Sequence record: PX880103.1
Strand: one strand, 5' to 3'
DNA length: 64,000 nucleotides
Source of the DNA: a phage
Shown: positions 3,806 to 63,484 of the stretch, piece after piece
Position numbering within the stretch: position 1 is the first letter of the stretch
How the letters are laid out: every line of letters starts with the position of its first letter
Made by a program: the position numbers and the translations under genes
Notes under the pieces: model-generated
Told to the model about the DNA's origin: nothing
The model's database searches: none
The model's input: only the letters and a program-made list of their open reading frames with translations

Positions 3806-3846
3806 TTTCTAATCTCCGTAATTCTGTATCAGTAGTTGATAGTTGT

Positions 3847-7024: not shown

Positions 7025-7123
7025 TTAAAAATATTCGTAATAAATGTGAATACCAACTACTACCGCTGAAACCTGTGCAACCCACCACGCACAAGCAATA
7101 AGTACAGAATTCATAATTTTCAT
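7025..7123 (-). CDS. Small hydrophobic peptide (32 aa)
   Basis: Below track cutoff; SD TGAGG; MKIMNSVLIACAWWVAQVSAVVVGIHIYYEYF. Confidence 0.35.
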   Translation of the reverse strand: MKIMNSVLIACAWWVAQVSAVVVGIHIYYEYF

Positions 7124-7206
7124 AATAACCTCATTACAAAAGTAAATATTAAACAAATTACTGGAATACTAATTAACCAAACAAAACACCACCACAATGA
7201 ACTCAT
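7120..7206 (-). CDS. Small hydrophobic peptide (28 aa)
   Basis: Below track cutoff; MSSLWWCFVWLISIPVICLIFTFVMRLL; overlaps the next start. Confidence 0.3.
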   Translation of the reverse strand: MSSLWWCFVWLISIPVICLIFTFVMRLL

Positions 7207-7263
7207 AGCTCAATCTCAGCGATTTTCATTTCATTCTCCAAATCCGTATCAGTTGATAGTTGT

Positions 7264-7293
7264 ATAGTACCACGGTCCTTGTGGTATGTAAAC
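7264..7293 (-). promoter_or_regulatory. Early promoter cassette with duplicated imm.1 leader and first four codons
   Basis: Minus-strand GTTTAC at 7288-7293 and TACTAT at 7264-7269; leader ...GGAGAATGAAATGAAAATCGCT is identical to the imm.1 start region (33889-33903). Confidence 0.6.
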
Positions 7294-8178: not shown

Positions 8179-9115
8179 ATTTAAATTGTTCAGTAACGTC
8201 TTCAACTACTTCATATTGGCAGGTACGCATTTTAGCATCGTTGTAATCAATCGGAATTGATACTACATCGCGAGGATGAACTTTAACTTTTACAACTCGG
8301 CTGGTTGAACTACCAAAGTGACGAATATAAGATTTAGAACACACATGCAGACCACGAGAACAAGTCTGTGTATCATCGTCATTCACACGAGTACGCGGCA
8401 TTTTAACTACTTTACCCGGACTGTTATCAAAGGTATTTGAGTGACAGTCAAAGTAATTGCTACGAACTACTTTCCAAGCATAGAAGTAACCATCTTCTGT
8501 AATTTCAATATCGTTTGCTACCAAGAAATCAAAGAGTCGAGATACCGCTTTTTGGCTTGGGTTTTCCAACAGATTTTCCAAGAACGGAAAATAAAATTCA
8601 AAGTTTTCGCCTTTTTCCATCGAGTCAAGAATACGATCAACCAAACCAGACCGCAATTCAATATTTTGATAGAACAAGCTTCCACCTTCAATTCGAACAT
8701 CGCCGGAAATATATTTTTCAACAGCACGACGAACATTAATTTTTTGTGCCGCTTCTTCCAACTTATCCGCTACAAGCAGATTAAGAATTTCCTGGAAGTT
8801 TGAATGAGTATTAGGAGTTGCGTTATAAGTTACGCCATCAACAGTAATTGAAATGAATTTTTTAGATGCATTCCAAATAATGTCAGATTTAGCAACTGGA
8901 GCAATAACTGCATCGCTATTAACTTTAACTGTAATATCACCGCTAATAGTAACTTTAGGGTGTTTAGCTTCTTCAGCATTTTTCAAAACACGGCGGATTG
9001 TGTCAACCGATACACCTTGCCAATCAGCCAATTCCTGTTGGGTATAATTACCACTTGAATACAGCTTAACAATTTCAGCTTGTTCGTTTTTGGTCAGGCA
9101 TTTAATATTGTACAT
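8177..9115 (-). CDS. rIIB: rIIB protein
   Basis: 312 aa as in T4 rIIB; adjacent to rIIA; ATG confirmed. Confidence 0.9.
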   Translation of the reverse strand: MYNIKCLTKNEQAEIVKLYSSGNYTQQELADWQGVSVDTIRRVLKNAEEAKHPKVTISGDITVKVNSDAVIAPVAKSDIIWNASKKFISITVDGVTYNATPNTHSNFQEILNLLVADKLEEAAQKINVRRAVEKYISGDVRIEGGSLFYQNIELRSGLVDRILDSMEKGENFEFYFPFLENLLENPSQKAVSRLFDFLVANDIEITEDGYFYAWKVVRSNYFDCHSNTFDNSPGKVVKMPRTRVNDDDTQTCSRGLHVCSKSYIRHFGSSTSRVVKVKVHPRDVVSIPIDYNDAKMRTCQYEVVEDVTEQFK

Positions 9116-11573: not shown

Positions 11574-13390
11574 TACTGGCTCATCCATTCTTTACGAAGG
11601 TCAGCATTATCTCCCATGAGCATTTCAAAAAGCTCTTTCCAGTTCTCAGGAAGTTTAACAACATCATATACTGGGTTTTGAATCATCTCACGATATTCAG
11701 ATTTTTCCAAAGAGCCAAGTCCTTTAATATAACGGATGCTATGTTTAGGTAGAGCATCTTTGGCACTCTCATATTCAGCGACTGTATAAAACCATTCTTG
11801 TTTTTTACCGACCTGAGCGATGATTACAGGAGTTTTGACAAAGCGAATTCTTCCTTGTTCAAACAGTTCTGGCCAATTACTAAAAAATCCGAGCAGAGAA
11901 GGATAAATGCTTCCTAGACCATCATGGTCAGCATCAGTCATAATAGCAATATTATGATAATTCAAGTTTTCAGCTTTTTCACCGAGAACTAATCCAGTGA
12001 TTGCGCAAATATCAAATAGTTCTTTGTTTTTAAGCATATCGGCATATGACATACCCCAGCTATTAAGAACTTTACCGCGTAATGGATAACCACCGTGAAG
12101 TTCTTTATCACGAACATCAATAAGATATCCGATAGCAGAATCACCCTCGGTTAAGAACAATGTAGTGTCAGCATCTTTACCGCAAAGATTCGCTTTAATA
12201 TGTTTATGAACCTTAGCTTTAGAAGCCTTTTTAGCTGCTTTAGTTTCTGCTGCTTTTTCTGCTGCCAATTTACGAGCTAATGCTGCTTCAATAATTGGCA
12301 TTAGAATTGCTTCATTATTTAGAATAGCGCGTGAAATCTTTTTAGCATCAAGTTGAATATGACTACGAATTTCACCAAATGGAGAAGTCAAACGCTCTTT
12401 AGTTTGAGAGTCAAATCGCATGTTTTTCATATCGCGAACAAACATAACGATAGTCAAACATTCTTTAACACGTGCTTTAGTCACATCAATTTTGAACTTA
12501 CGTTTGATTTGTGGAATAAGGTCTTCACAAATATCATCCATAACACAGTCAATGTGATGGCCACCATTCTTAGTATGAATGTTATTGACGTATGTTAATT
12601 GACGAAAACCATCCGGTGAACGACCAACCGCAATAGAACAATTTTCTTGTTCTTGAACGATAGCATGTTCATCATATTGGCGTGCGTATTTCTTAAAATT
12701 ACCCTGAACCTTTTTACCATTAAAGGTAAATTGAATATCAGGATAAACAACAGCAAGTGTTTGGAGACGATCTAGTGTAATGTCAAGATAAACTTGGGAC
12801 AGCTCATTAGTTTCAAATGACATAAAATCAGGAATGAAAGTAACACGGGTTCCTTTCCATTTTCCAGGAATATCTTCCCATGATTTATTTTCCATGCCGT
12901 TTGAACAACGAACTACAATATTATTTTGACCATCGCCAGTTTCACCAACAAACATCACAGAAAAAATGTTTGTCAAACTAGAACCAACACCATTCATACC
13001 GCCAGTGACGCGTTCTTTATCATCACCAAAGTTACCACCTGCTTTTGGAATAGTCCATGCAGCAACAGGACCAGGAATTTCTTCACCGGTAGGTGTTTTA
13101 ACCATTGCCTGCGGAATACCACGACCGTTATCTTCAACTGTTACTTGATTGTTTTTAATAGTAACATTAATTTTATTTGCGAATTTAAACTTAGTACGAA
13201 TACCTTCATCTACTGAGTTATCGATAATTTCATCAATAAGCTTAACAAGACCAGGTACATACTGAACACTTTCCCATTTACCAAACAGAAAGCGCTCATG
13301 CATTTCATTAGCAGAAGAGCCAATGTACATGCCGCTACGCTTTTTGATATGTTCAATATCGCTCAGAATTTTAATTTCATTCTTAATCAT
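11573..13390 (-). CDS. 39: DNA topoisomerase II large (ATPase) subunit, uninterrupted gene 39
   Basis: 605 aa from ATG at 13390 (track adds a GTG codon); N-terminus MIKNEIKILSDIEHIKKRSGMYIGS as in T4 gp39; continues through the region that is gene 60 in T4. Confidence 0.9.
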   Translation of the reverse strand: MIKNEIKILSDIEHIKKRSGMYIGSSANEMHERFLFGKWESVQYVPGLVKLIDEIIDNSVDEGIRTKFKFANKINVTIKNNQVTVEDNGRGIPQAMVKTPTGEEIPGPVAAWTIPKAGGNFGDDKERVTGGMNGVGSSLTNIFSVMFVGETGDGQNNIVVRCSNGMENKSWEDIPGKWKGTRVTFIPDFMSFETNELSQVYLDITLDRLQTLAVVYPDIQFTFNGKKVQGNFKKYARQYDEHAIVQEQENCSIAVGRSPDGFRQLTYVNNIHTKNGGHHIDCVMDDICEDLIPQIKRKFKIDVTKARVKECLTIVMFVRDMKNMRFDSQTKERLTSPFGEIRSHIQLDAKKISRAILNNEAILMPIIEAALARKLAAEKAAETKAAKKASKAKVHKHIKANLCGKDADTTLFLTEGDSAIGYLIDVRDKELHGGYPLRGKVLNSWGMSYADMLKNKELFDICAITGLVLGEKAENLNYHNIAIMTDADHDGLGSIYPSLLGFFSNWPELFEQGRIRFVKTPVIIAQVGKKQEWFYTVAEYESAKDALPKHSIRYIKGLGSLEKSEYREMIQNPVYDVVKLPENWKELFEMLMGDNADLRKEWMSQ

Positions 13391-13417
13391 CACTTATCCT
13401 CGTTTGGTTTCGGGAAT

Positions 13418-13443
13418 ATTATACTCCAGTAATCATAAAGCTA
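13418..13443 (-). promoter_or_regulatory. Middle-promoter-like element (MotA-box-like TAGCTTTA, 12 bp, TATAAT) upstream of gene 39
   Basis: Minus strand cctTTAGCTTTATgattactggagTATAAT directly after the 13443-13460 hairpin; one mismatch to the TGCTTtA core. Confidence 0.45.
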
Positions 13444-13460
13444 AAGGCCCGAAGGCCTTT
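13443..13460 (-). terminator. GGCCCGAAGGCC hairpin
   Basis: aaaggcc-cgaa-ggccttt; follows the stop of the lipoprotein gene. Confidence 0.5.
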
Positions 13461-13720
13461 TATTTAAAACGAATAGTCGAATCCTTGAAGAATAGTCCAG
13501 AACATACTGTTCCTTCTACTTTCTGCCCGGTAGGTCCAATAGCACGAAATCCAGTATGTTGGAAATCATTTTCAGAGCAACCGAACCAGTTATATCCAGT
13601 GATTTCAATATTAGTAAAACCACTTGAAGACAAAACTTTGGTTGCATTATCAGCATCAGTACATCCTACTAAAGACACTACTAATACTAATGCTGCGATA
13701 GAACGATTAATATATTTCAT
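13460..13720 (-). CDS. Putative lipoprotein (86 aa, 39.1 position)
   Basis: From ATG at 13720 (track start is GTG): MKYINRSIAALVLVVSLVGC, signal peptide with lipobox LVGC. Confidence 0.55.
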   Translation of the reverse strand: MKYINRSIAALVLVVSLVGCTDADNATKVLSSSGFTNIEITGYNWFGCSENDFQHTGFRAIGPTGQKVEGTVCSGLFFKDSTIRFK

Positions 13721-13725
13721 AATTT

Positions 13726-14097
13726 TCACTTAAATTTAATGGCTTGAAGAAGACTAATAACTCTCAAGCGGCTTCTTTCATCTTTAACTGTAAAGGAAAG
13801 AGGGTCACCAGATTTCATAGTGATAGTGCATCCAAAATCAAAATTTTCGGGAACTTCTTCGAAGAAGTCAAATTCTTCAGCATAAATTAGAACATTACTC
13901 TGCATACTGTGAAGAATTTTTCCATTATTTCCAGACGCTGTACTAATCATCGTAACATTATGACCTTTCATATCTTCAACGATAAATTCGCTTGTAGATA
14001 TTACAGCATTAATAGAACCATTCCTATAAATAGCAGACATTAGATATTTCTTTTCTTCGCCTTCGCGAATACGATATTTCTTACCGATTTTAAACAT
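13726..14097 (-). CDS. Hypothetical protein (123 aa, 39.2 position)
   Basis: ATG at 14097 (track start is GTG). Confidence 0.5.
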   Translation of the reverse strand: MFKIGKKYRIREGEEKKYLMSAIYRNGSINAVISTSEFIVEDMKGHNVTMISTASGNNGKILHSMQSNVLIYAEEFDFFEEVPENFDFGCTITMKSGDPLSFTVKDERSRLRVISLLQAIKFK

Positions 14098-14099
14098 AA

Positions 14100-14276
14100 T
14101 CACCCTTTAAGTAAGTCGTAAAAACCACCATTCACATGCTTAGGAGCAGAAGGCCGACGAGTAGACAAACGATGACATTTAGGGCAAACATCATTTTCTC
14201 GTTCAGAAATCTTTTTAATTTTTTCATATTCATGCCCGCAATCTTCGGATTGGCATTTATAATCATACATTGGCAT
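14100..14276 (-). CDS. Small zinc-ribbon protein (58 aa)
   Basis: Below track cutoff; MPMYDYKCQSEDCGHEYEKIKKISERENDVCPKCHRL..., CxxxxC...CxxC; fits exactly between flanking genes. Confidence 0.5.
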   Translation of the reverse strand: MPMYDYKCQSEDCGHEYEKIKKISERENDVCPKCHRLSTRRPSAPKHVNGGFYDLLKG

Positions 14277-14278
14277 AA

Positions 14279-14698
14279 TTATTCCTTAAAGTGAGCTTTC
14301 AACATCTGATACAAGGACCATGCTTGTTCATTATTTTCAATAGTAACTTTCATTACCGGGAATTCTGTGAAATCTTCTATTTGTTCTTGCTCTTCCTGCT
14401 CTTGTTCTTCAGCAGCCTGATATGGATTTTCAACTTCATCAAAGAACCCAGCTTCGTTAGTAGAGAGCCAGATAAAGTTTTCGTCAAGGATATCACCGCC
14501 GGCACAGCGTTTGAGTACACCTATGGATGTCATAATTTTAGTAGGACGCCCAAGATAATCAGCATCTAAAATTTTAAAAGGCTCCATACCTAAACGTCGT
14601 GCATAGATTCCGTTATCAGTATGGTCTTTAATAAAATTTTCTTGAGCTTGTTTATTTTTAAATTGATACCATTTATTAACTTCAAATTTAATAGCCAT
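14279..14698 (-). CDS. Hypothetical protein (139 aa; goF position)
   Basis: Size and position match T4 goF (about 141 aa) from memory only; acidic C-terminal tail. Confidence 0.5.
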
Positions 14699-14913
14699 TA
14701 ATAAATTTCCTTCCAGTAAGTTGTGCCGTCTTCAGTAATTTCACGAAATACACCGTAAATTGGCTGTTTATCACCGACTTTCTCATACACATAAACAGAA
14801 GTCAAGTGAGTAAACTTGCTAGTATGTTCCTTTTGAACTACTACCAAGTCTGGATCGAATAATACATCTTCAAATTCGTCATTAGTGCAGTTTTGAACAA
14901 TTTTACGTTTCAT
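14698..14913 (-). CDS. Hypothetical protein (71 aa; cef position)
   Basis: Size and position match T4 cef; GAGGAAA SD. Confidence 0.5.
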
Positions 14914-15012
14914 TACAATTTCCTCATTAATTGAACATTGGAGCGATGCGTTTCAGAAGAGTATCAACACCTTTAGCGAATTTTCCATTTTATTCTCCGA
15001 GTTGTTTTCTGT

Positions 15013-15055
15013 ATCAGTAGTTGATATTGATATAGTACCATAATCAACTACTGAT
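15013..15055 (-). promoter_or_regulatory. Atypical promoter inside a perfect 13-bp inverted repeat (atcagtagttgat / atcaactactgat)
   Basis: The loop carries TGGTACTAT (-10-like); followed by the conserved leader and GGAG; no canonical GTTTAC. Confidence 0.4.
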
Positions 15056-15085
15056 GTATATAGTTTTATGAAAAAATTTTAAACT

Positions 15086-15574
15086 TTATGCATAGAGAGC
15101 ATTGCTATAGTGTTTAATCCAACTTTCAGGAATGACTTTGTATGTTCCTAAAAATACCACGTTGTACAACTTAACGCCATCTTCTACCCATTGATCGGTA
15201 ATGTATCCACACATAGCGCGAGTATAAGCAGCCTTTCCATCATCTTTGATAAATTTAAATTCGCAAGGAGCAATGAACTTAATAGCTTGACCGAGTTTCC
15301 ACTTAAAGTCTACACCTACATGCGAAGTATCAATCGTTTCAATTCCTTTAGCGGGAACAGCTTTCAAAAACGCAGATTCAAGAAATTTCGCGCGAACATA
15401 ACCAAACTGGGGTTTAGACTTTCCATCTTTAGGAATGATACGAACTTTTACTTCAGAATCTTCATCTTTAACGCCATGCTTAAGCTGAATGCTTACAATT
15501 TCGACCAATTTTCCTGCTGCTTTAGAACGGGATTTATCAGATACACGAGCAATTTCACCAATATTAATAATCAT
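15086..15574 (-). CDS. motB: MotB-like DNA-binding protein (162 aa)
   Basis: Size and position (next after cef) match T4 motB; lysine-rich; ATG confirmed. Confidence 0.55.
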   Translation of the reverse strand: MIINIGEIARVSDKSRSKAAGKLVEIVSIQLKHGVKDEDSEVKVRIIPKDGKSKPQFGYVRAKFLESAFLKAVPAKGIETIDTSHVGVDFKWKLGQAIKFIAPCEFKFIKDDGKAAYTRAMCGYITDQWVEDGVKLYNVVFLGTYKVIPESWIKHYSNALYA

Positions 15575-15618
15575 AGTTATCTCTCACTTGTTAAAAAGAT
15601 TTTATACTCCACAGGACC

Positions 15619-15648
15619 ATTATACTCTGGTCCCAAGAGTTTGTAAAC
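15619..15648 (-). promoter_or_regulatory. Early promoter (GTTTAC-N18-TATAAT) for motB
   Basis: Minus-strand GTTTAC at 15643-15648 and TATAAT at 15619-15624; the -10 sits inside inverted repeat ggacca/tggtcc (15614-15633). Confidence 0.6.
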
Positions 15649-15650
15649 TA

Positions 15651-16190
15651 TTAATTCAAAATAGCTACCACTGCACTACGAGGTACTACGCTAAAATCAC
15701 CCGCATGAACAACGTTCAGAAGTTCAACACCATCTTCAATCCATTGGTCTGTTACCCAACCACAGACCGAAATAAATGGAGTCTTGATAGCTACCGCATG
15801 AGTTAGAAGGTCAGTAGGATCAACTTCTTTGAAGAGGATAAGCTCTGCTTCAAAGACTATAGTTTTAATTACTTCATCATTATCTAAGCGATGTACTCGA
15901 ATCACGTAAGCTTTATTCTTATCATGCCAGTTACTTTTTGAAAAACTTTTAACCACAAACTCGCCTTCACCAAAAGCATTAGTCAATGCTTTATAACCCA
16001 AATTTAGTTCAGTAGTTTTAATTTCAGTTTCAACCAGTTTGTAGGTTTTGCCGATTTCAATAGCGGTAGCCATAGTAGGTTCCTTAATTTCCAGTGGTTT
16101 AACAGGGCATACATAAGTGCTTACAACATCAAAATCAATCAGTTTAGCTACCGGATTTGGTATGTATTCAGGATTATAATTAAATTTCAT
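15651..16190 (-). CDS. Hypothetical protein (179 aa), MotB paralogue by C-terminal motif
   Basis: C-terminus CGWVTDQWIEDGVELLNVV parallels MCGYITDQWVEDGVKLYNVV in the 162-aa neighbour. Confidence 0.55.
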   Translation of the reverse strand: MKFNYNPEYIPNPVAKLIDFDVVSTYVCPVKPLEIKEPTMATAIEIGKTYKLVETEIKTTELNLGYKALTNAFGEGEFVVKSFSKSNWHDKNKAYVIRVHRLDNDEVIKTIVFEAELILFKEVDPTDLLTHAVAIKTPFISVCGWVTDQWIEDGVELLNVVHAGDFSVVPRSAVVAILN

Positions 16191-16192
16191 AA

Positions 16193-16693
16193 TTATCTCA
16201 TTTCAATAAAATCTACGAGTTCAGCATGCGATTTGCGGAACATTACTTGATGCCCACCAATGATAACTTCATCTTCAGGAACTTCGTATACAGCGAGATA
16301 AAATCCTTTAGAAGATAATTCTTCCCGCTCTTCTCGTGTGAACCATCTCATCATATCATATTCGCTAGCGAAAGCAAAATGATAAAGAGCTATAAACCAT
16401 CCTGGAATATGATATTCTACTCCAACATAATCTTTCTTGAACTTAGTATTAATTACTATATTAGCGTTTTTAACTAATAGTTTATCTTCGTGTGGTAAAG
16501 GAATTCTTTTATTATTATCGCTATGATGCATAAAATTAGGTCTGTCATAACCTACGTGTAATAGCCACTCTTCGCTCCATGAATCTATTATACTCCTGTA
16601 TGGCGTTATTTGAACACAAAGATTTCGACGTATTGTTATAGCATCTTCACAATTAAGAATACTAAACGATGATTCAACACGATAAATTTTCAT
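16193..16693 (-). CDS. Hypothetical protein (166 aa)
   Basis: ATG at 16693 with GAGGA SD, downstream of the 16721-16750 promoter (track start at 16732 is TTG inside the promoter). Confidence 0.55.
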   Translation of the reverse strand: MKIYRVESSFSILNCEDAITIRRNLCVQITPYRSIIDSWSEEWLLHVGYDRPNFMHHSDNNKRIPLPHEDKLLVKNANIVINTKFKKDYVGVEYHIPGWFIALYHFAFASEYDMMRWFTREEREELSSKGFYLAVYEVPEDEVIIGGHQVMFRKSHAELVDFIEMR

Positions 16694-16720
16694 TTTATTA
16701 TCCTCAGTAGCTATGGTGTT

Positions 16721-16750
16721 ATAATACCACAACTAACCGAGGAAGTAAAC
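16721..16750 (-). promoter_or_regulatory. Early promoter (GTTTAC-N18-TATTAT)
   Basis: Minus-strand GTTTACttcctcggttagttgtggTATTAT, just downstream of dexA. Confidence 0.6.
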
Positions 16751-16756
16751 AACTTT

Positions 16757-17440
16757 TTATCGTTTTGTTGGAAGAGATAGAGGATCGCATTCTTCCTCTG
16801 ATGGAGCATCTTCGAGACCCATAGCATATCGCAAAGCATACTTCATCATCAGAATATCTTTCGCACAGTCATGAATAGAATCATGCGCAACAAATCCATC
16901 TAAGGTTCCTTTTGGAAGAGGGCACGTGGTCATATCACGAACAAGCAGAAGTGCTTCAATTCTGGTACGAATATCACGCTGATTCCAGAATTTACATGGT
17001 TCTAACTTAAATGTGTCAAGCTCATTCTCAGAAACGCCGTTAAGACGTTGAATATCGCGAATGAGATCGACTAAAATTGGAAAATCAAACGACATTCCAC
17101 GGCACCAACCTTGAGATTTCCAAGGATCGATATTATGCGCATTGATGTAATCATTAAATTTTGCAATACCATCGATAGTACTTACATCTTCATCGGATGG
17201 TGCAATATTTTTTCGAGCTTCAGGAGATTGATTTTTCCACCATTCGATAGTGCTTTTAGTAAAAAGACGATGTCCTTTTTGGCTTTTTAAATCAAATTTG
17301 ATTTTAATGCCACGTGAAACTAATTCATCGAATGTTTCAACGACTTCTGGATTAGGGTCAAAAGCAATTACAGCCAAATCAATAACAGCTGCTTTTTCAC
17401 CACTTCCCATTGTTTCAAAATCTATAATAAAATCAAACAT
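16757..17440 (-). CDS. dexA: Exonuclease A (DnaQ-like 3'-5' exonuclease)
   Basis: 227 aa as in T4 DexA; N-terminal DxE motif (DFETMG); ATG confirmed. Confidence 0.85.
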   Translation of the reverse strand: MFDFIIDFETMGSGEKAAVIDLAVIAFDPNPEVVETFDELVSRGIKIKFDLKSQKGHRLFTKSTIEWWKNQSPEARKNIAPSDEDVSTIDGIAKFNDYINAHNIDPWKSQGWCRGMSFDFPILVDLIRDIQRLNGVSENELDTFKLEPCKFWNQRDIRTRIEALLLVRDMTTCPLPKGTLDGFVAHDSIHDCAKDILMMKYALRYAMGLEDAPSEEECDPLSLPTKR

Positions 17441-17682
17441 TAAACTTTCCTCGCTAAATCGCGAATTTGACCTACAGTATAGTCTTGAATATAAACTTTA
17501 TTAATAGGTTCATCAATAAATTTTGCCATAGATTCAATATCTTTTTGCATCTCTTCAAGACTGTATATTATCTTTAAAGCTTTTTCGCGAATAGTAATAT
17601 TTTCAGGACCAGAATTTTTCTCAATGACAGCTTTAACATTTGTCATAAGAGATTTAAACTGACACCAACTTAATTCAATCAT
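17440..17682 (-). CDS. Hypothetical small protein (about 80 aa), member of a tandem trio
   Basis: ATG at 17682 chosen (track start at 17715 overlaps upstream gene by 41 nt); C-terminus IQDYTVGQIRDLARKV resembles the neighbour. Confidence 0.45.
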   Translation of the reverse strand: MIELSWCQFKSLMTNVKAVIEKNSGPENITIREKALKIIYSLEEMQKDIESMAKFIDEPINKVYIQDYTVGQIRDLARKV

Positions 17683-17920
17683 TAATAACCGCCTTATAAA
17701 GATGGCTAATTTCACCTAAAACATAATCACTGATTGTAACAGTTTTTACTTCACCACAAAAGAATTCTAACGCAATTAAATCTCGTTCAATTTCTTCTAA
17801 TTGAAGCATTAACTTGCCTGATTCAGTTTTCACGTTTTTGCGATTTTTACTATAAGCTAATTCATAAATTTCATTTACTTTATCTTGAAGAAGATAAAAC
17901 TGATCTTTAGTTATTTCCAC
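17675..17920 (-). CDS. Hypothetical small protein (about 81 aa), member of a tandem trio
   Basis: GTG at 17920 with GAGGAAG SD (track start is TTG); C-terminus TISDYVLGEISHLYKAVIND. Confidence 0.45.
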   Translation of the reverse strand: MEITKDQFYLLQDKVNEIYELAYSKNRKNVKTESGKLMLQLEEIERDLIALEFFCGEVKTVTISDYVLGEISHLYKAVIND

Positions 17921-18167
17921 GAATAGCTTCCTCAAATTTAATTAGTAATTTACAGACACTTTCATCTAGTGTAATTACCGTATCTGTATTACTGTGATAT
18001 GATTGTTTTTCAATTCGTTTAATTGCTAATATAGTATCACTTATAAGATAAAGCTTATGAAGGAGCTCAGCTCCTGTTACCATAACATCGAGATTATCTT
18101 GCTTATTAGTATGCTTCCTTATACCATCTATTAGACGATTTAAATATTTTGAATTGATGTTAATCAT
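17907..18167 (-). CDS. Hypothetical small protein (86 aa), member of a tandem trio
   Basis: ORF track; similar length and charge pattern to the two downstream ORFs. Confidence 0.5.
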   Translation of the reverse strand: MININSKYLNRLIDGIRKHTNKQDNLDVMVTGAELLHKLYLISDTILAIKRIEKQSYHSNTDTVITLDESVCKLLIKFEEAIRGNN

Positions 18168-28427: not shown

Positions 28428-28456
28428 AACAATCTCCTCATTTAACCAACAAGACT

Positions 28457-28486
28457 ACTATACCATAGTCTTGTCAGCTTGTAAAC
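28457..28486 (-). promoter_or_regulatory. Early promoter (GTTTAC-N18-TATAGT) for dmd
   Basis: Minus-strand GTTTAC at 28481-28486; the -10 lies in the loop of inverted repeat acaagact/agtcttgt (28449-28474). Confidence 0.6.
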
Positions 28487-63426: not shown

Positions 63427-63454
63427 TCTCTTCTCCTTGGCAGTTGACAAGATT

Positions 63455-63484
63455 ACTATATCATAACCTTGCCAACTTGTAAAC
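63455..63484 (-). promoter_or_regulatory. Early promoter (GTTTAC-N18-TATAGT)
   Basis: Minus strand GTTTACaagttggcaaggttatgaTATAGT. Confidence 0.6.

Follow-up and report, generated by a model that had tools for sequence, protein, structure and literature searches.

Early promoters of a T4-like phage embed sense-strand hairpins resembling promoter-early stem-loops

A 64,000-nucleotide stretch of phage DNA (PX880103.1, hereafter the window) is a T4-like (Tequatrovirus) genome in which an earlier note had pointed to three inverted repeats at early promoters. All three are present: IR1 at the promoter between motB and cef, IR2 at the motB promoter, and IR3 at the dmd promoter, a documented T4 early promoter (PMC9391042). 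Comparison of sequences across phages indicates that selection has acted on a sense-strand hairpin. We consider these sites to be probably the T-even form of the promoter-early stem-loops (PeSLs); the hairpin would be that half of the cassette which, in read-through RNA, acts as a terminator or insulator. The concept is already published for T4-like phages, and the sites are not a new class; the present analysis contributes confirmation, covariation evidence and strand asymmetry.

All three repeats make sense when read on the minus strand, here the sense (coding) strand, and the corresponding sites are present in T4, whose GenBank and RefSeq records carry no promoter or terminator features. 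Each lies between an upstream stop codon and a downstream ribosome-binding site and start codon: from the stop codon of the upstream gene to the -35 there are 2 nt at IR2, -1 nt at IR3 and 24 nt at IR1, and a ribosome-binding site and ATG then follow. The promoters at IR2 (GTTTAC-18-TATAAT) and IR3 (GTTTAC-18-TATAGT) are canonical T4 early promoters, and that at IR1 (TATACA-17-TGgTACTAT) combines a weaker -35 with an extended -10, an arrangement found likewise at the same position in Dhakavirus (TATACA-17-TACTAT/TAAGAT). A candidate alternative promoter upstream of IR1 (GTTTAA...TATATA) was dropped, its spacer being an A/T run that varies in length among relatives. The coordinates of all features are collected in Table 1. 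The 13-bp perfect repeat and 17-nt loop previously described for IR1 were confirmed. At IR2 the repeat stands where it had been placed, but it does not wholly enclose TATAAT, the 3' arm beginning with the last T of that hexamer; the IR3 repeat was also correctly located, but its perfect core is 9 bp long and not 8.

Table 1. Positions of the promoter-embedded repeats and associated features in the window
Feature	Positions	Strand	Description
IR1, whole repeat	15013-15055	-	13 bp perfect, ATCAGTAGTTGAT / ATCAACTACTGAT, 17-nt loop TATGGTACTATATCAAT
IR1, -35-like hexamer TATACA	15055..15060	-	17 nt upstream of TACTAT
IR1, 5' arm ATCAGTAGTTGAT	15043..15055	-	fills the -35/-10 spacer
IR1, loop TATGGTACTATATCAAT	15026..15042	-	holds the extended -10 TGgTACTAT; -10 hexamer 15032-15037
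IR1, 3' arm ATCAACTACTGAT	15013..15025	-	initial-transcribed motif common to several other early promoters
Remnant ORF, 11 codons (ATGGAAAATTCGCTAAAGGTGTTGATACTCTTCTGA)	14953..14988	-	downstream of IR1
IR2, perfect repeat	15614-15633	-	6 bp, GGACCA / TGGTCC around gagTATAA
IR2, 5' arm TGGGACCA	15628..15635	-	motB early promoter spacer; GTTTAC 15643-15648
IR2, 3' arm TGGTCCTG	15612..15619	-	from the last T of the -10 TATAAT (15619-15624) to about +1
IR3, perfect core	28449-28474	-	9 bp, ACAAGACTA / TAGTCTTGT, loop TGGTATAG
IR3, 5' arm AGCTGACAAGACTAT	28465..28479	-	dmd promoter spacer; core ACAAGACTA 28466-28474; GTTTAC 28481-28486
IR3, 3' arm GTAGTCTTGTTGGTT	28444..28458	-	starts inside the -10 TATAGT (28457-28462); core TAGTCTTGT 28449-28457

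The three sites are capable of forming hairpins, as had been proposed. IR1 folds at -20.2 kcal/mol (z = -5.3), and five extra inner pairs are possible in its loop after a 2x2 internal loop. When G·U pairs are admitted, IR3 extends to 15 pairs (-18.9 kcal/mol, z = -7.1) and IR2 to 8 pairs, the latter with a less distinctive fold (-11.4 kcal/mol, z = -1.85; 12 of 200 shuffles fold equally well). A dyad-symmetry search of the whole window, counting perfect repeats with loops of 3-24 nt, recovered 588 repeats of at least 6 bp (464±24 expected), 20 of at least 9 bp (10±3 expected) and a single one of at least 13 bp (0.1 expected). The last is IR1, the longest perfect repeat in the 64 kb, so that only IR1 is individually improbable, and IR2 (6 bp) and IR3 (9 bp) are ordinary as perfect repeats. 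Nor do promoters as a group stand out by this measure: perfect repeats of 6 bp or longer surround the -10 at 3 of the 24 promoters and TAnnnT at 13.9% of random sites, which is chance level.

The selection signal is visible only when sense-strand G·U pairs are allowed, and in covariation across phages. With G·U tolerated on the sense strand, 6 of the 24 early promoters have a stem of 10 pairs or more across the -10, as against 0.8±0.8 promoters in left/right chimera controls, none of which reached six in 300 trials; random TAnnnT sites attain the same stem length 3.9% of the time. Mean folding energy at the 24 promoters was -12.15 kcal/mol, compared with -9.07 for the chimeras (0/300) and -8.5 for the antisense strand, on which only two of the 24 reach even 8 pairs. 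Altogether, 6-8 of the 24 promoters in the window carry such hairpins. When the analysis was replicated in RB69, folding energy was again significant against chimeras (1/300), stem length was not significant, and no strand asymmetry was seen.

Protein-seeded searches for the loci yielded 7 viral and 10 metagenomic relatives, and diversity came mainly from GenBank phage records. For IR2, pairing was counted in an ungapped alignment anchored on TATAAT, with slid registers as controls; MAFFT alignments of the motB promoter were not used for the counts because unmatched gaps fell in the two arms. Over 8 distinct sequences, pairing was retained in 64 of 64 cells, compared with 20-29 of 64 in the slid registers, and unrelated matches to the pattern pair at 0-3 positions only. 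The 8 pairs are kept in every T4-like relative compared. Four of them are altered on both sides between Tequatrovirus (GGGACCA/TGGTCCC) and Dhakavirus/teqhad (GAGAGCCA/TGGCTCTC), and as two clades supply most of the compensatory changes, the independent events are few. All six one-sided changes at IR2 produce G·U on the sense strand. At IR3, one pair occurs as G-C, G·U and A-U in different phages, and two others pass from A-U to G·U. At the cef promoter, the hairpin arms of four genera are unrelated to one another (ATCAGTAGTTGAT, GGTAGGGTA, GGTCTAT and GATAGGG). The arms in homologous promoters of related phages thus keep their pairing, even where, in other genera, they have been swapped for unrelated or compensatorily changed sequence. 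Across sites, 10 of 11 one-sided arm substitutions keep G·U on the sense strand only.

These comparative data already contradict the explanation that, mainly at IR2 and IR3, short repeats simply flank the -10 by chance in AT-rich DNA. The window does contain many perfect repeats of 6 and 9 bp, perfect-repeat statistics at promoters are those of chance, and the IR2 fold is matched by shuffled sequence; yet chance would explain neither the covariation and absence of any disruption at IR2 across genera, nor the G-C, G·U, A-U series at IR3, nor an enrichment that no chimera set equals, and we regard it as scarcely tenable. We hold it equally improbable that the repeats are operators at which a dimeric DNA-binding regulator, of phage or host origin, controls early promoters, as the earlier note had suggested. 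A perfect 13-bp palindrome lying over the core promoter, as at IR1, is where a repressor would act. However, the arms of different promoters have no common motif, arm spacing varies between sites, with loops of 8 to 17 nt, and the arms co-vary or are replaced with pairing kept. One-sided changes, moreover, yield G·U (G·T in DNA) on one strand only, which breaks the symmetry of the duplex. The selection data therefore weigh against an operator and for a strand-specific hairpin, most likely in RNA.

Within Tequatrovirus, IR1 contributes no covariation, as the alignment of 14 distinct sequences has no variable columns: all 43 nt are invariant, loop included. This invariance would be in keeping with IR1 being a bidirectional promoter, in which two back-to-back modules, each a -10 plus initial-transcribed sequence, share the symmetric -10 TACTATA (that is, TAnnnTA), giving a cef-ward transcript and an antisense RNA into the 3' end of motB, with the palindrome as a by-product. 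Symmetric bidirectional sigma-70 promoters with a common TAnnnTA -10 were reportedly described by Warman et al. in 2021. Like these, IR1 is centred on TACTATA and has extended -10 motifs on both strands, the plus strand reading TGaTATAGT-accata-ATCAACTACTGAT, where the same conserved start region comes after an extended -10. The 13-bp flanking arms, however, fall outside that model, the homologues in Dhakavirus, Mosigvirus and Gaprivervirus keep the hairpin without a convincing promoter on the opposite strand, and the explanation is inapplicable to IR2 and IR3. We judge it distinctly improbable.

The surroundings of IR1 are nonetheless a site of gene gain and loss. Directly downstream of it, before cef, a reading frame of about 90 aa is kept in some Tequatroviruses and absent in others, and the 11-codon ORF in the window is the leftover of this frame. 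The earlier note had raised recombination hotspots as a possibility, and a link to recombination and genome plasticity is plausible, given this presence and absence and the occurrence of the module at other loci. One could go further and propose that the cassettes are primarily linkers for recombination at the DNA level, acting as homology patches or as a recombination-protein target for the gain, loss or exchange of small early genes, with hairpin potential secondary; such a role has been proposed in the PeSL literature (PMC2839356, PMC4122927). It would fit the recurrence of these sequences: a 51-mer of IR1 matches about 3 places per genome, its 3' arm has a copy at 3828-3840 in the window, its 3' half and leader recur ahead of RB69 e.8 and at further promoters in the window, and a motB-type cassette sits at a different locus in RB69. 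Homology-driven exchange, though, needs identity between copies and not intramolecular pairing, and would leave the compensatory changes and the G·U-only pattern unexplained. In addition, the deletion junction adjoining IR1 falls at an AAAA microhomology inside the ORF and not within the repeat. We therefore think it unlikely that recombination is the primary function. Under the PeSL interpretation, a secondary effect of the conserved cassettes would be to offer patches of homology through which genes are gained and lost.

How a promoter and a hairpin could share one sequence is suggested by their geometry. The 5' arm lies in the -35/-10 spacer and the 3' arm just past the -10, so that the -10 falls in the loop and the arms occupy the sole promoter positions free to vary; with the upstream gene ending only a few bases from the -35, hardly any other space is left for a hairpin. 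Start sites, placed by sigma-70 geometry, fall in the loop or the 3' arm, and the promoter's own transcript accordingly lacks the 5' arm. This speaks against the earlier proposal that the nascent RNA of the promoter itself folds to modulate initiation. With the start site inside the hairpin, both arms occur only in transcripts that read through from the upstream gene, for which the routes would be motB.1 into motB, motB into cef and gene 41 into dmd. The sense-strand hairpin most likely acts as RNA: in read-through transcripts it would dampen read-through, give the upstream message a protected 3' end, or both, and promoter-initiated mRNA would stay unstructured. Its precise role may be that of an attenuator, of 3'-end protection or of an insulator.

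Were the hairpin to act in DNA, whether in the non-template strand alone or as a supercoiling-driven cruciform, the -10 would be exposed in single-stranded form and open-complex formation tuned in this way. The -10 lies in the loop in every case, and the G·T-tolerant strand is the non-template strand, as this explanation would have it. Against it, the 5' arm lies beyond the reach of the transcription bubble; a cruciform would require the template strand, carrying A·C mismatches, to fold too; loops of 6-17 nt with short AT-rich stems extrude poorly; and the sister hairpins that extend to a ribosome-binding site (below) make sense only in RNA. We find this very unlikely, and just as doubtful the corollary that an extruded sense strand holds the -10 pre-melted in the loop for sigma-70 region 2, which would aid the exceptional strength of T4 early promoters.

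Indirect evidence bearing on an RNA-level function comes from the context of the hairpins. In Mosigvirus and Gaprivervirus, a canonical UUCG-loop terminator directly follows gene 41 and precedes the promoter; in Tequatrovirus, gene 41 is followed by the promoter-embedded hairpin only. Where a canonical terminator precedes a promoter in the window, the hairpin overlapping that promoter is weak (-5.0, -6.0 and -12.5 kcal/mol). Hairpins of -14 kcal/mol or stronger were found at 8 of 11 promoters abutting an upstream stop codon and at 1 of 7 others (Fisher p = 0.05, for a threshold chosen post hoc and with one small-ORF call corrected by hand); hairpin strength was not significantly related to distance from the upstream stop codon by Spearman or Mann-Whitney tests. 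One independent GenBank annotation labels IR1 a rho-independent terminator. A terminator consensus scan of positions 13000-18000 returned no terminator-like site, and an Rfam scan of the full 64 kb gave no family at or above its gathering score. We rejected assignment of IR1-3 to the intrinsic terminators, which have a G+C-rich stem and a U-tract: the stems here are AT-rich, and the tails that follow them (ACAGAAAAC at IR1, TGGAGTATA at IR2 and AAATGAGGA at IR3) contain no U-tract, which makes canonical intrinsic termination unlikely.

At IR1-3 the stem ends 8-28 nt before the Shine-Dalgarno sequence, and these hairpins do not sequester the ribosome-binding site. At sister promoters whose -10 starts at 16726 (upstream of motB.2), 6993 and 59261, the 3' arm does reach the Shine-Dalgarno, so that read-through copies would also be translationally silenced; the Dhakavirus and RB69 counterparts of these promoters pair the ribosome-binding site as well.

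Taken together, the results show a number of classic T4 early promoters (those of motB, cef and dmd and their neighbours) to be dual-use sequences, in which the same 40-50 bases serve as a promoter on DNA and as a strand-specific hairpin kept pairable across genera. As the start site lies inside the hairpin, a gene would be made as two forms of mRNA, one folded and arising by read-through, the other unfolded and initiated at the promoter. Where the stem reaches the ribosome-binding site, this would be a simple way to tie translation to the origin of the transcript, and so to the time of infection. In annotation, such sites are better labelled as promoter/stem-loop cassettes (PeSL-like) than as operators, and in phage engineering, edits to promoter spacers may disturb RNA structure and the insulation between genes.

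With respect to known systems, the sites share with intrinsic terminators a stem-loop right after the upstream stop codon, which canonical terminators replace in other genera, but they differ in their missing U-tract, AT-rich stems and loops of 6-17 nt. The T4 genes e, soc, 49 and I-TevI possess translation-blocking hairpins, each with a late promoter inside (PMC3014915). As in these, the promoter lies within the hairpin, long upstream transcripts would fold, promoter-initiated ones lack the 5' arm, and the sister early promoters pair the spacer with the downstream ribosome-binding site; unlike in these, the ribosome-binding site is outside the stem at IR1-3, and the embedded promoter is early (sigma-70) and not late (gp55).

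The closest likeness, one that the earlier note had anticipated in pointing to T4 early-promoter stem-loops, is to the PeSLs of T4-like phages, described in RB49/phi1 (Arbiol et al. 2010, PMC2839356) and also in PST/T4 and nt-1/KVP40 (Comeau et al. 2014, PMC4122927). According to these reports, overlap with the -10 is frequent among PeSL stem-loops, as are G-T pairs, the stems of the T-even analogues are weaker and AT-rich, and one stem-loop that was tested, PeSL211/210, lowered expression of a reporter to about the same degree as the rrnB T1 terminator. The sites described here differ in that their stems are AT-rich, heterogeneous and devoid of a U-tract, and not of the G(n)...C(n) type; terminator activity has been demonstrated for one RB49-type stem-loop only, and the legend to the PST figure puts the stem-loops just upstream of the promoter, whereas here the -10 is bracketed. 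In other respects they agree. At IR1-3, as in PeSLs, a short intergenic space holds an early sigma-70-type promoter joined to a stable, overlapping stem-loop, and a ribosome-binding site and a small gene come directly after. Stems mostly lie between -35 and -10 or over the -10, with G-T pairs, and the consensus of the PST/T4 pair, TTTACW-N17-TAYWAT, fits the sites. As in PeSLs, too, the elements recur along the genome and adjoin indels and sites of gene exchange, as seen in the variable ORF at IR1 and in the module found at other loci and in RB69.

The earlier note had placed inverted repeats around -10 elements at three promoters, and all three were found at their coordinates (see table): IR1 at the promoter between motB and cef, IR2 at the motB promoter and IR3, between gene 41 and dmd, at the dmd promoter, an already documented T4 early promoter (PMC9391042). 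The surrounding region is 96-98% identical to many Tequatrovirus (T4-like) genomes and keeps the gene order of T4 (goF, cef, motB, motB.1, motB.2, dexA; minus strand throughout). The T4 genome contains the same three repeats, with an IR2 stem of seven Watson-Crick pairs (GGGACCA/TGGTCCC) where the window has one G·T.

Inverted repeats, neighbouring genes and related promoter elements
Feature	Position	Strand	Description
IR1	15013-15055	minus	arms ATCAGTAGTTGAT / ATCAACTACTGAT, 13 bp perfect; 17-nt loop with TGgTACTAT; TATACA-17-TACTAT
IR2	15614-15633	minus	arms GGACCA / TGGTCC; loop gagTATAA; motB early promoter, GTTTAC-18-TATAAT
IR3	28449-28474	minus	arms ACAAGACTA / TAGTCTTGT, 9 bp; loop TGGTATAG; dmd early promoter, GTTTAC-18-TATAGT
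goF	14279-14698	minus	
cef	14698-14913	minus	
motB	15086-15574	minus	
Module-sharing promoters	-10 starts 3852, 7269, 33931, 60700, 59261, 6993	minus	
cef promoter hairpin, Dhakavirus			GGTAGGGTA/TACCCTATC
cef promoter hairpin, RB69			GGTCTAT/ATAGACC
cef promoter hairpin, Gaprivervirus			GATAGGG/CCCTATC

As a chance test, perfect repeats with loops of 3-24 nt were counted across the entire window and compared with a Markov simulation, giving 588 observed versus 464±24 expected for stems of at least 6 bp, 20 versus 10±3 for at least 9 bp, and a single repeat, IR1, versus 0.1 for at least 13 bp. Among perfect repeats IR1 alone exceeds chance; IR2 and IR3 do not. Perfect repeats of 6 bp or more span TAnnnT at 3 of 24 early promoters and at 13.9% of random sites, which is chance level. 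Over all 64 kb, perfect inverted repeats are in general more numerous than a first-order Markov model predicts (70 of at least 8 bp versus 36±6), and no Rfam family, tRNAs included, scored above threshold across the 64-kb window.

For the 24 minus-strand early promoters located in the window, we compared sense-strand pairing (G·U allowed) of each left flank with its own right flank against pairing with a right flank taken from a different promoter (chimeras). Stems of at least 10 pairs across the -10 element occur at six promoters versus 0.8±0.8 in the chimeras, where a count of 6 was reached in 0/300; the random-site rate is 3.9%. Mean sense-strand folding energy is -12.15 kcal/mol versus -9.07 for chimeras (0/300), while the antisense mean is -8.5 kcal/mol and antisense pairing reaches 8 pairs at 2/24 promoters. 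Sense-strand RNA folds are -20.2 kcal/mol for IR1 (z -5.3), -11.4 kcal/mol for IR2 (z -1.85) and -18.9 kcal/mol for IR3 (z -7.1). The enrichment of G·U-tolerant stems, the folding energies and the strand asymmetry together mark a class of strand-specific hairpins, not duplex palindromes. Replication in RB69 was weak, with folding energy versus chimeras alone significant and strand asymmetry absent. One early promoter (63435-63480, minus; -10 at 63455-63460) lies inside a stem of 14-15 pairs, two of them G·U (AGTTGGCAAGGTTA tgatatag TAATCTTGTCAACT), a geometry identical to that of IR3.

For IR2, eight distinct sequences from four lineages were aligned without gaps, anchored at TATAAT; over eight pair positions, 64/64 cells are canonical versus 20-29/64 in slid registers. 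Comparison of the T4 type (TGGGACCA/TGGTCCCG) with the Dhakavirus/teqhad type (GAGAGCCA/TGGCTCTC) shows four pairs in which both bases have changed, such compensatory changes coming chiefly from two clades, and one-sided changes yield G·U on the sense strand in every case. A pattern scan of viral contigs supplied a sixth one-sided G·U change, and its 15 unrelated matches paired at only 0-3 positions in the IR2 register. IR3 differs at 1-2 positions in about 160 of 505 GenBank records; among sampled variants, one position pairs as G·U in the window but as G-C in T4 and as A-U in phage G8, two more pass from A-U to G·U, and a single change breaks a pair (partial T4 record S57514). IR1 has zero variable columns in an alignment of 14 distinct Tequatrovirus sequences and its 51-mer is identical in 435/588 matching records; in other genera the homologous cef promoter has hairpins of a different sequence, the -10 lying within or beside the loop. 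The proposal that the repeats are operators was not borne out: pairing is kept while arm sequences vary, and wobble is tolerated on one strand, which disfavours an operator and favours a folded single strand.

With sigma-70 geometry, in which transcription starts about 7 nt past the -10, the start site of each promoter probably falls in the loop or 3' arm. The promoter's own RNA would therefore lack the 5' arm, and the entire hairpin would exist only in RNA from the upstream gene. The suggested stem-loop thus survives as a sense-strand hairpin but not as a structure of the promoter's own transcript. The folding molecule is most likely RNA, with non-template-strand DNA as an alternative that fits the sequence alone equally well. 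Pairing between promoter spacers and ribosome-binding sites is sensible at the RNA level only. At the motB.2 promoter, between dexA and motB.2 (16690-16750, minus; -10 at 16721-16726), the spacer TCCTCGGT... pairs with the ribosome-binding site of motB.2, ...ACTGAGGA, at -26.8 kcal/mol in the T4 form; Dhakavirus makes the same pairing with other sequences (TCTCCTCATG/CATGAGGAGA), as does RB69 via TTCTCCTCTGGTT/AACCAGAGGAGAA. At the promoters with -10 starts 6993 and 59261 (minus), spacers GTTCTTCCGT and GTTCCTCTGT pair across 15-nt loops with ACGGAGGAAC, which includes the GGAGG of the downstream gene. For motB.2, translation would be masked on read-through RNA but not on RNA begun at the promoter. 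These three hairpins are the early-promoter counterpart of the known arrangement at T4 e, soc, 49 and I-TevI (PMC3014915).

A GGAG at 15604-15608 (minus, roughly positions +2 to +5 in motB RNA), 3-4 nt past the IR2 hairpin, is conserved in Tequatrovirus, Gaprivervirus and most Dhakavirus and is not the motB ribosome-binding site. Since GGAG is the target motif of the RegB nuclease, it is a candidate cleavage site. Upstream of motB in RB69 (8319-8375) the leader (GGAGTATAAATCTTAAC...) is kept and the promoter cassette has lost its -10 and hairpin; another RB69 locus (-10 start 42477) has a cassette of motB type whose arms, CGAGAGA/TCTCTCG, are new.

A terminator-like or insulator role would fit several observations on the hairpins. 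Mosigvirus and Gaprivervirus have a canonical UUCG-loop terminator behind gene 41 and a promoter after it; Tequatrovirus lacks this terminator and has only IR3 around the promoter. Window promoters behind canonical terminators have weak overlapping hairpins, strong hairpins occur at 8/11 promoters abutting an upstream stop codon versus 1/7 others (Fisher p 0.05, post hoc threshold), and one GenBank annotation marks IR1 as a rho-independent terminator. No U-tract lies behind IR1, IR2 or IR3 and a consensus terminator scan of the region gave no match, so the role we propose is not canonical termination: the hairpin of the read-through RNA would attenuate read-through and/or cap the upstream message at its 3' end. 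The -10 sits in the loop because complementarity can evolve only in the spacer and in the bases directly past the -10, no other part of the promoter being free to change; a hairpin elsewhere would fall inside the upstream coding sequence or the promoter's own mRNA.

A ~90-aa ORF between IR1 and cef is retained by GiZh, JLBYU31, teqhad and several metagenomic relatives. In T4 and the window it has shrunk to a fused 11-codon remnant with its own GGAG ribosome-binding site (14953-14988, minus), and the deletion junction falls at an AAAA microhomology. Just upstream of IR1, an A/T run (15066-15082) varies in length in close relatives, and the neighbouring 60 nt are invariant. The IR1 3' half and leader recur at other window promoters and upstream of RB69 e.8, the 3' arm being the start-region motif of a long, near-identical module, tggTACTATacaactATCAACT(AC)(T)GATACGG..., that extends from -35 to beyond +20 at a subset of early promoters. 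Given TGaTATAGT on the plus strand, followed by the same start region, IR1 might in addition be a symmetric bidirectional promoter. At 7025-7240 (minus), flanked by the early promoters whose -10 elements start at 7269 and 6993, are very small hydrophobic ORFs (~28-43 aa).

Promoter-early stem-loops (PeSLs) were defined in RB49/phi1 by Arbiol et al. 2010 as early promoters with stem-loops mostly between -35 and -10 or overlapping -10, with G-T pairs present in the stems; one stem-loop assayed had terminator activity in a reporter, and the authors proposed PeSLs as recombination linkers and noted T-even analogues with weaker AT-rich stems at T4 early promoters (PMC2839356). A PeSL catalogue of the PST/T4 pair by Comeau et al. 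2014 gives the consensus TTTACW-N17-TAYWAT (PMC4122927). The comparison with known T4-type promoter stem-loops advised in the earlier note proved apt: by all sequence-level criteria IR1, IR2 and IR3 are PeSL-like cassettes, with putative terminator activity. The PeSL link to plasticity is seen here too, in the presence or absence of the ~90-aa ORF beside IR1 and copies of its module at other promoters; to this extent the suggestion of recombination hotspots stands, the role itself being putative. The elements, of modest interest, are further examples of the published PeSL-like promoter/stem-loop cassette.
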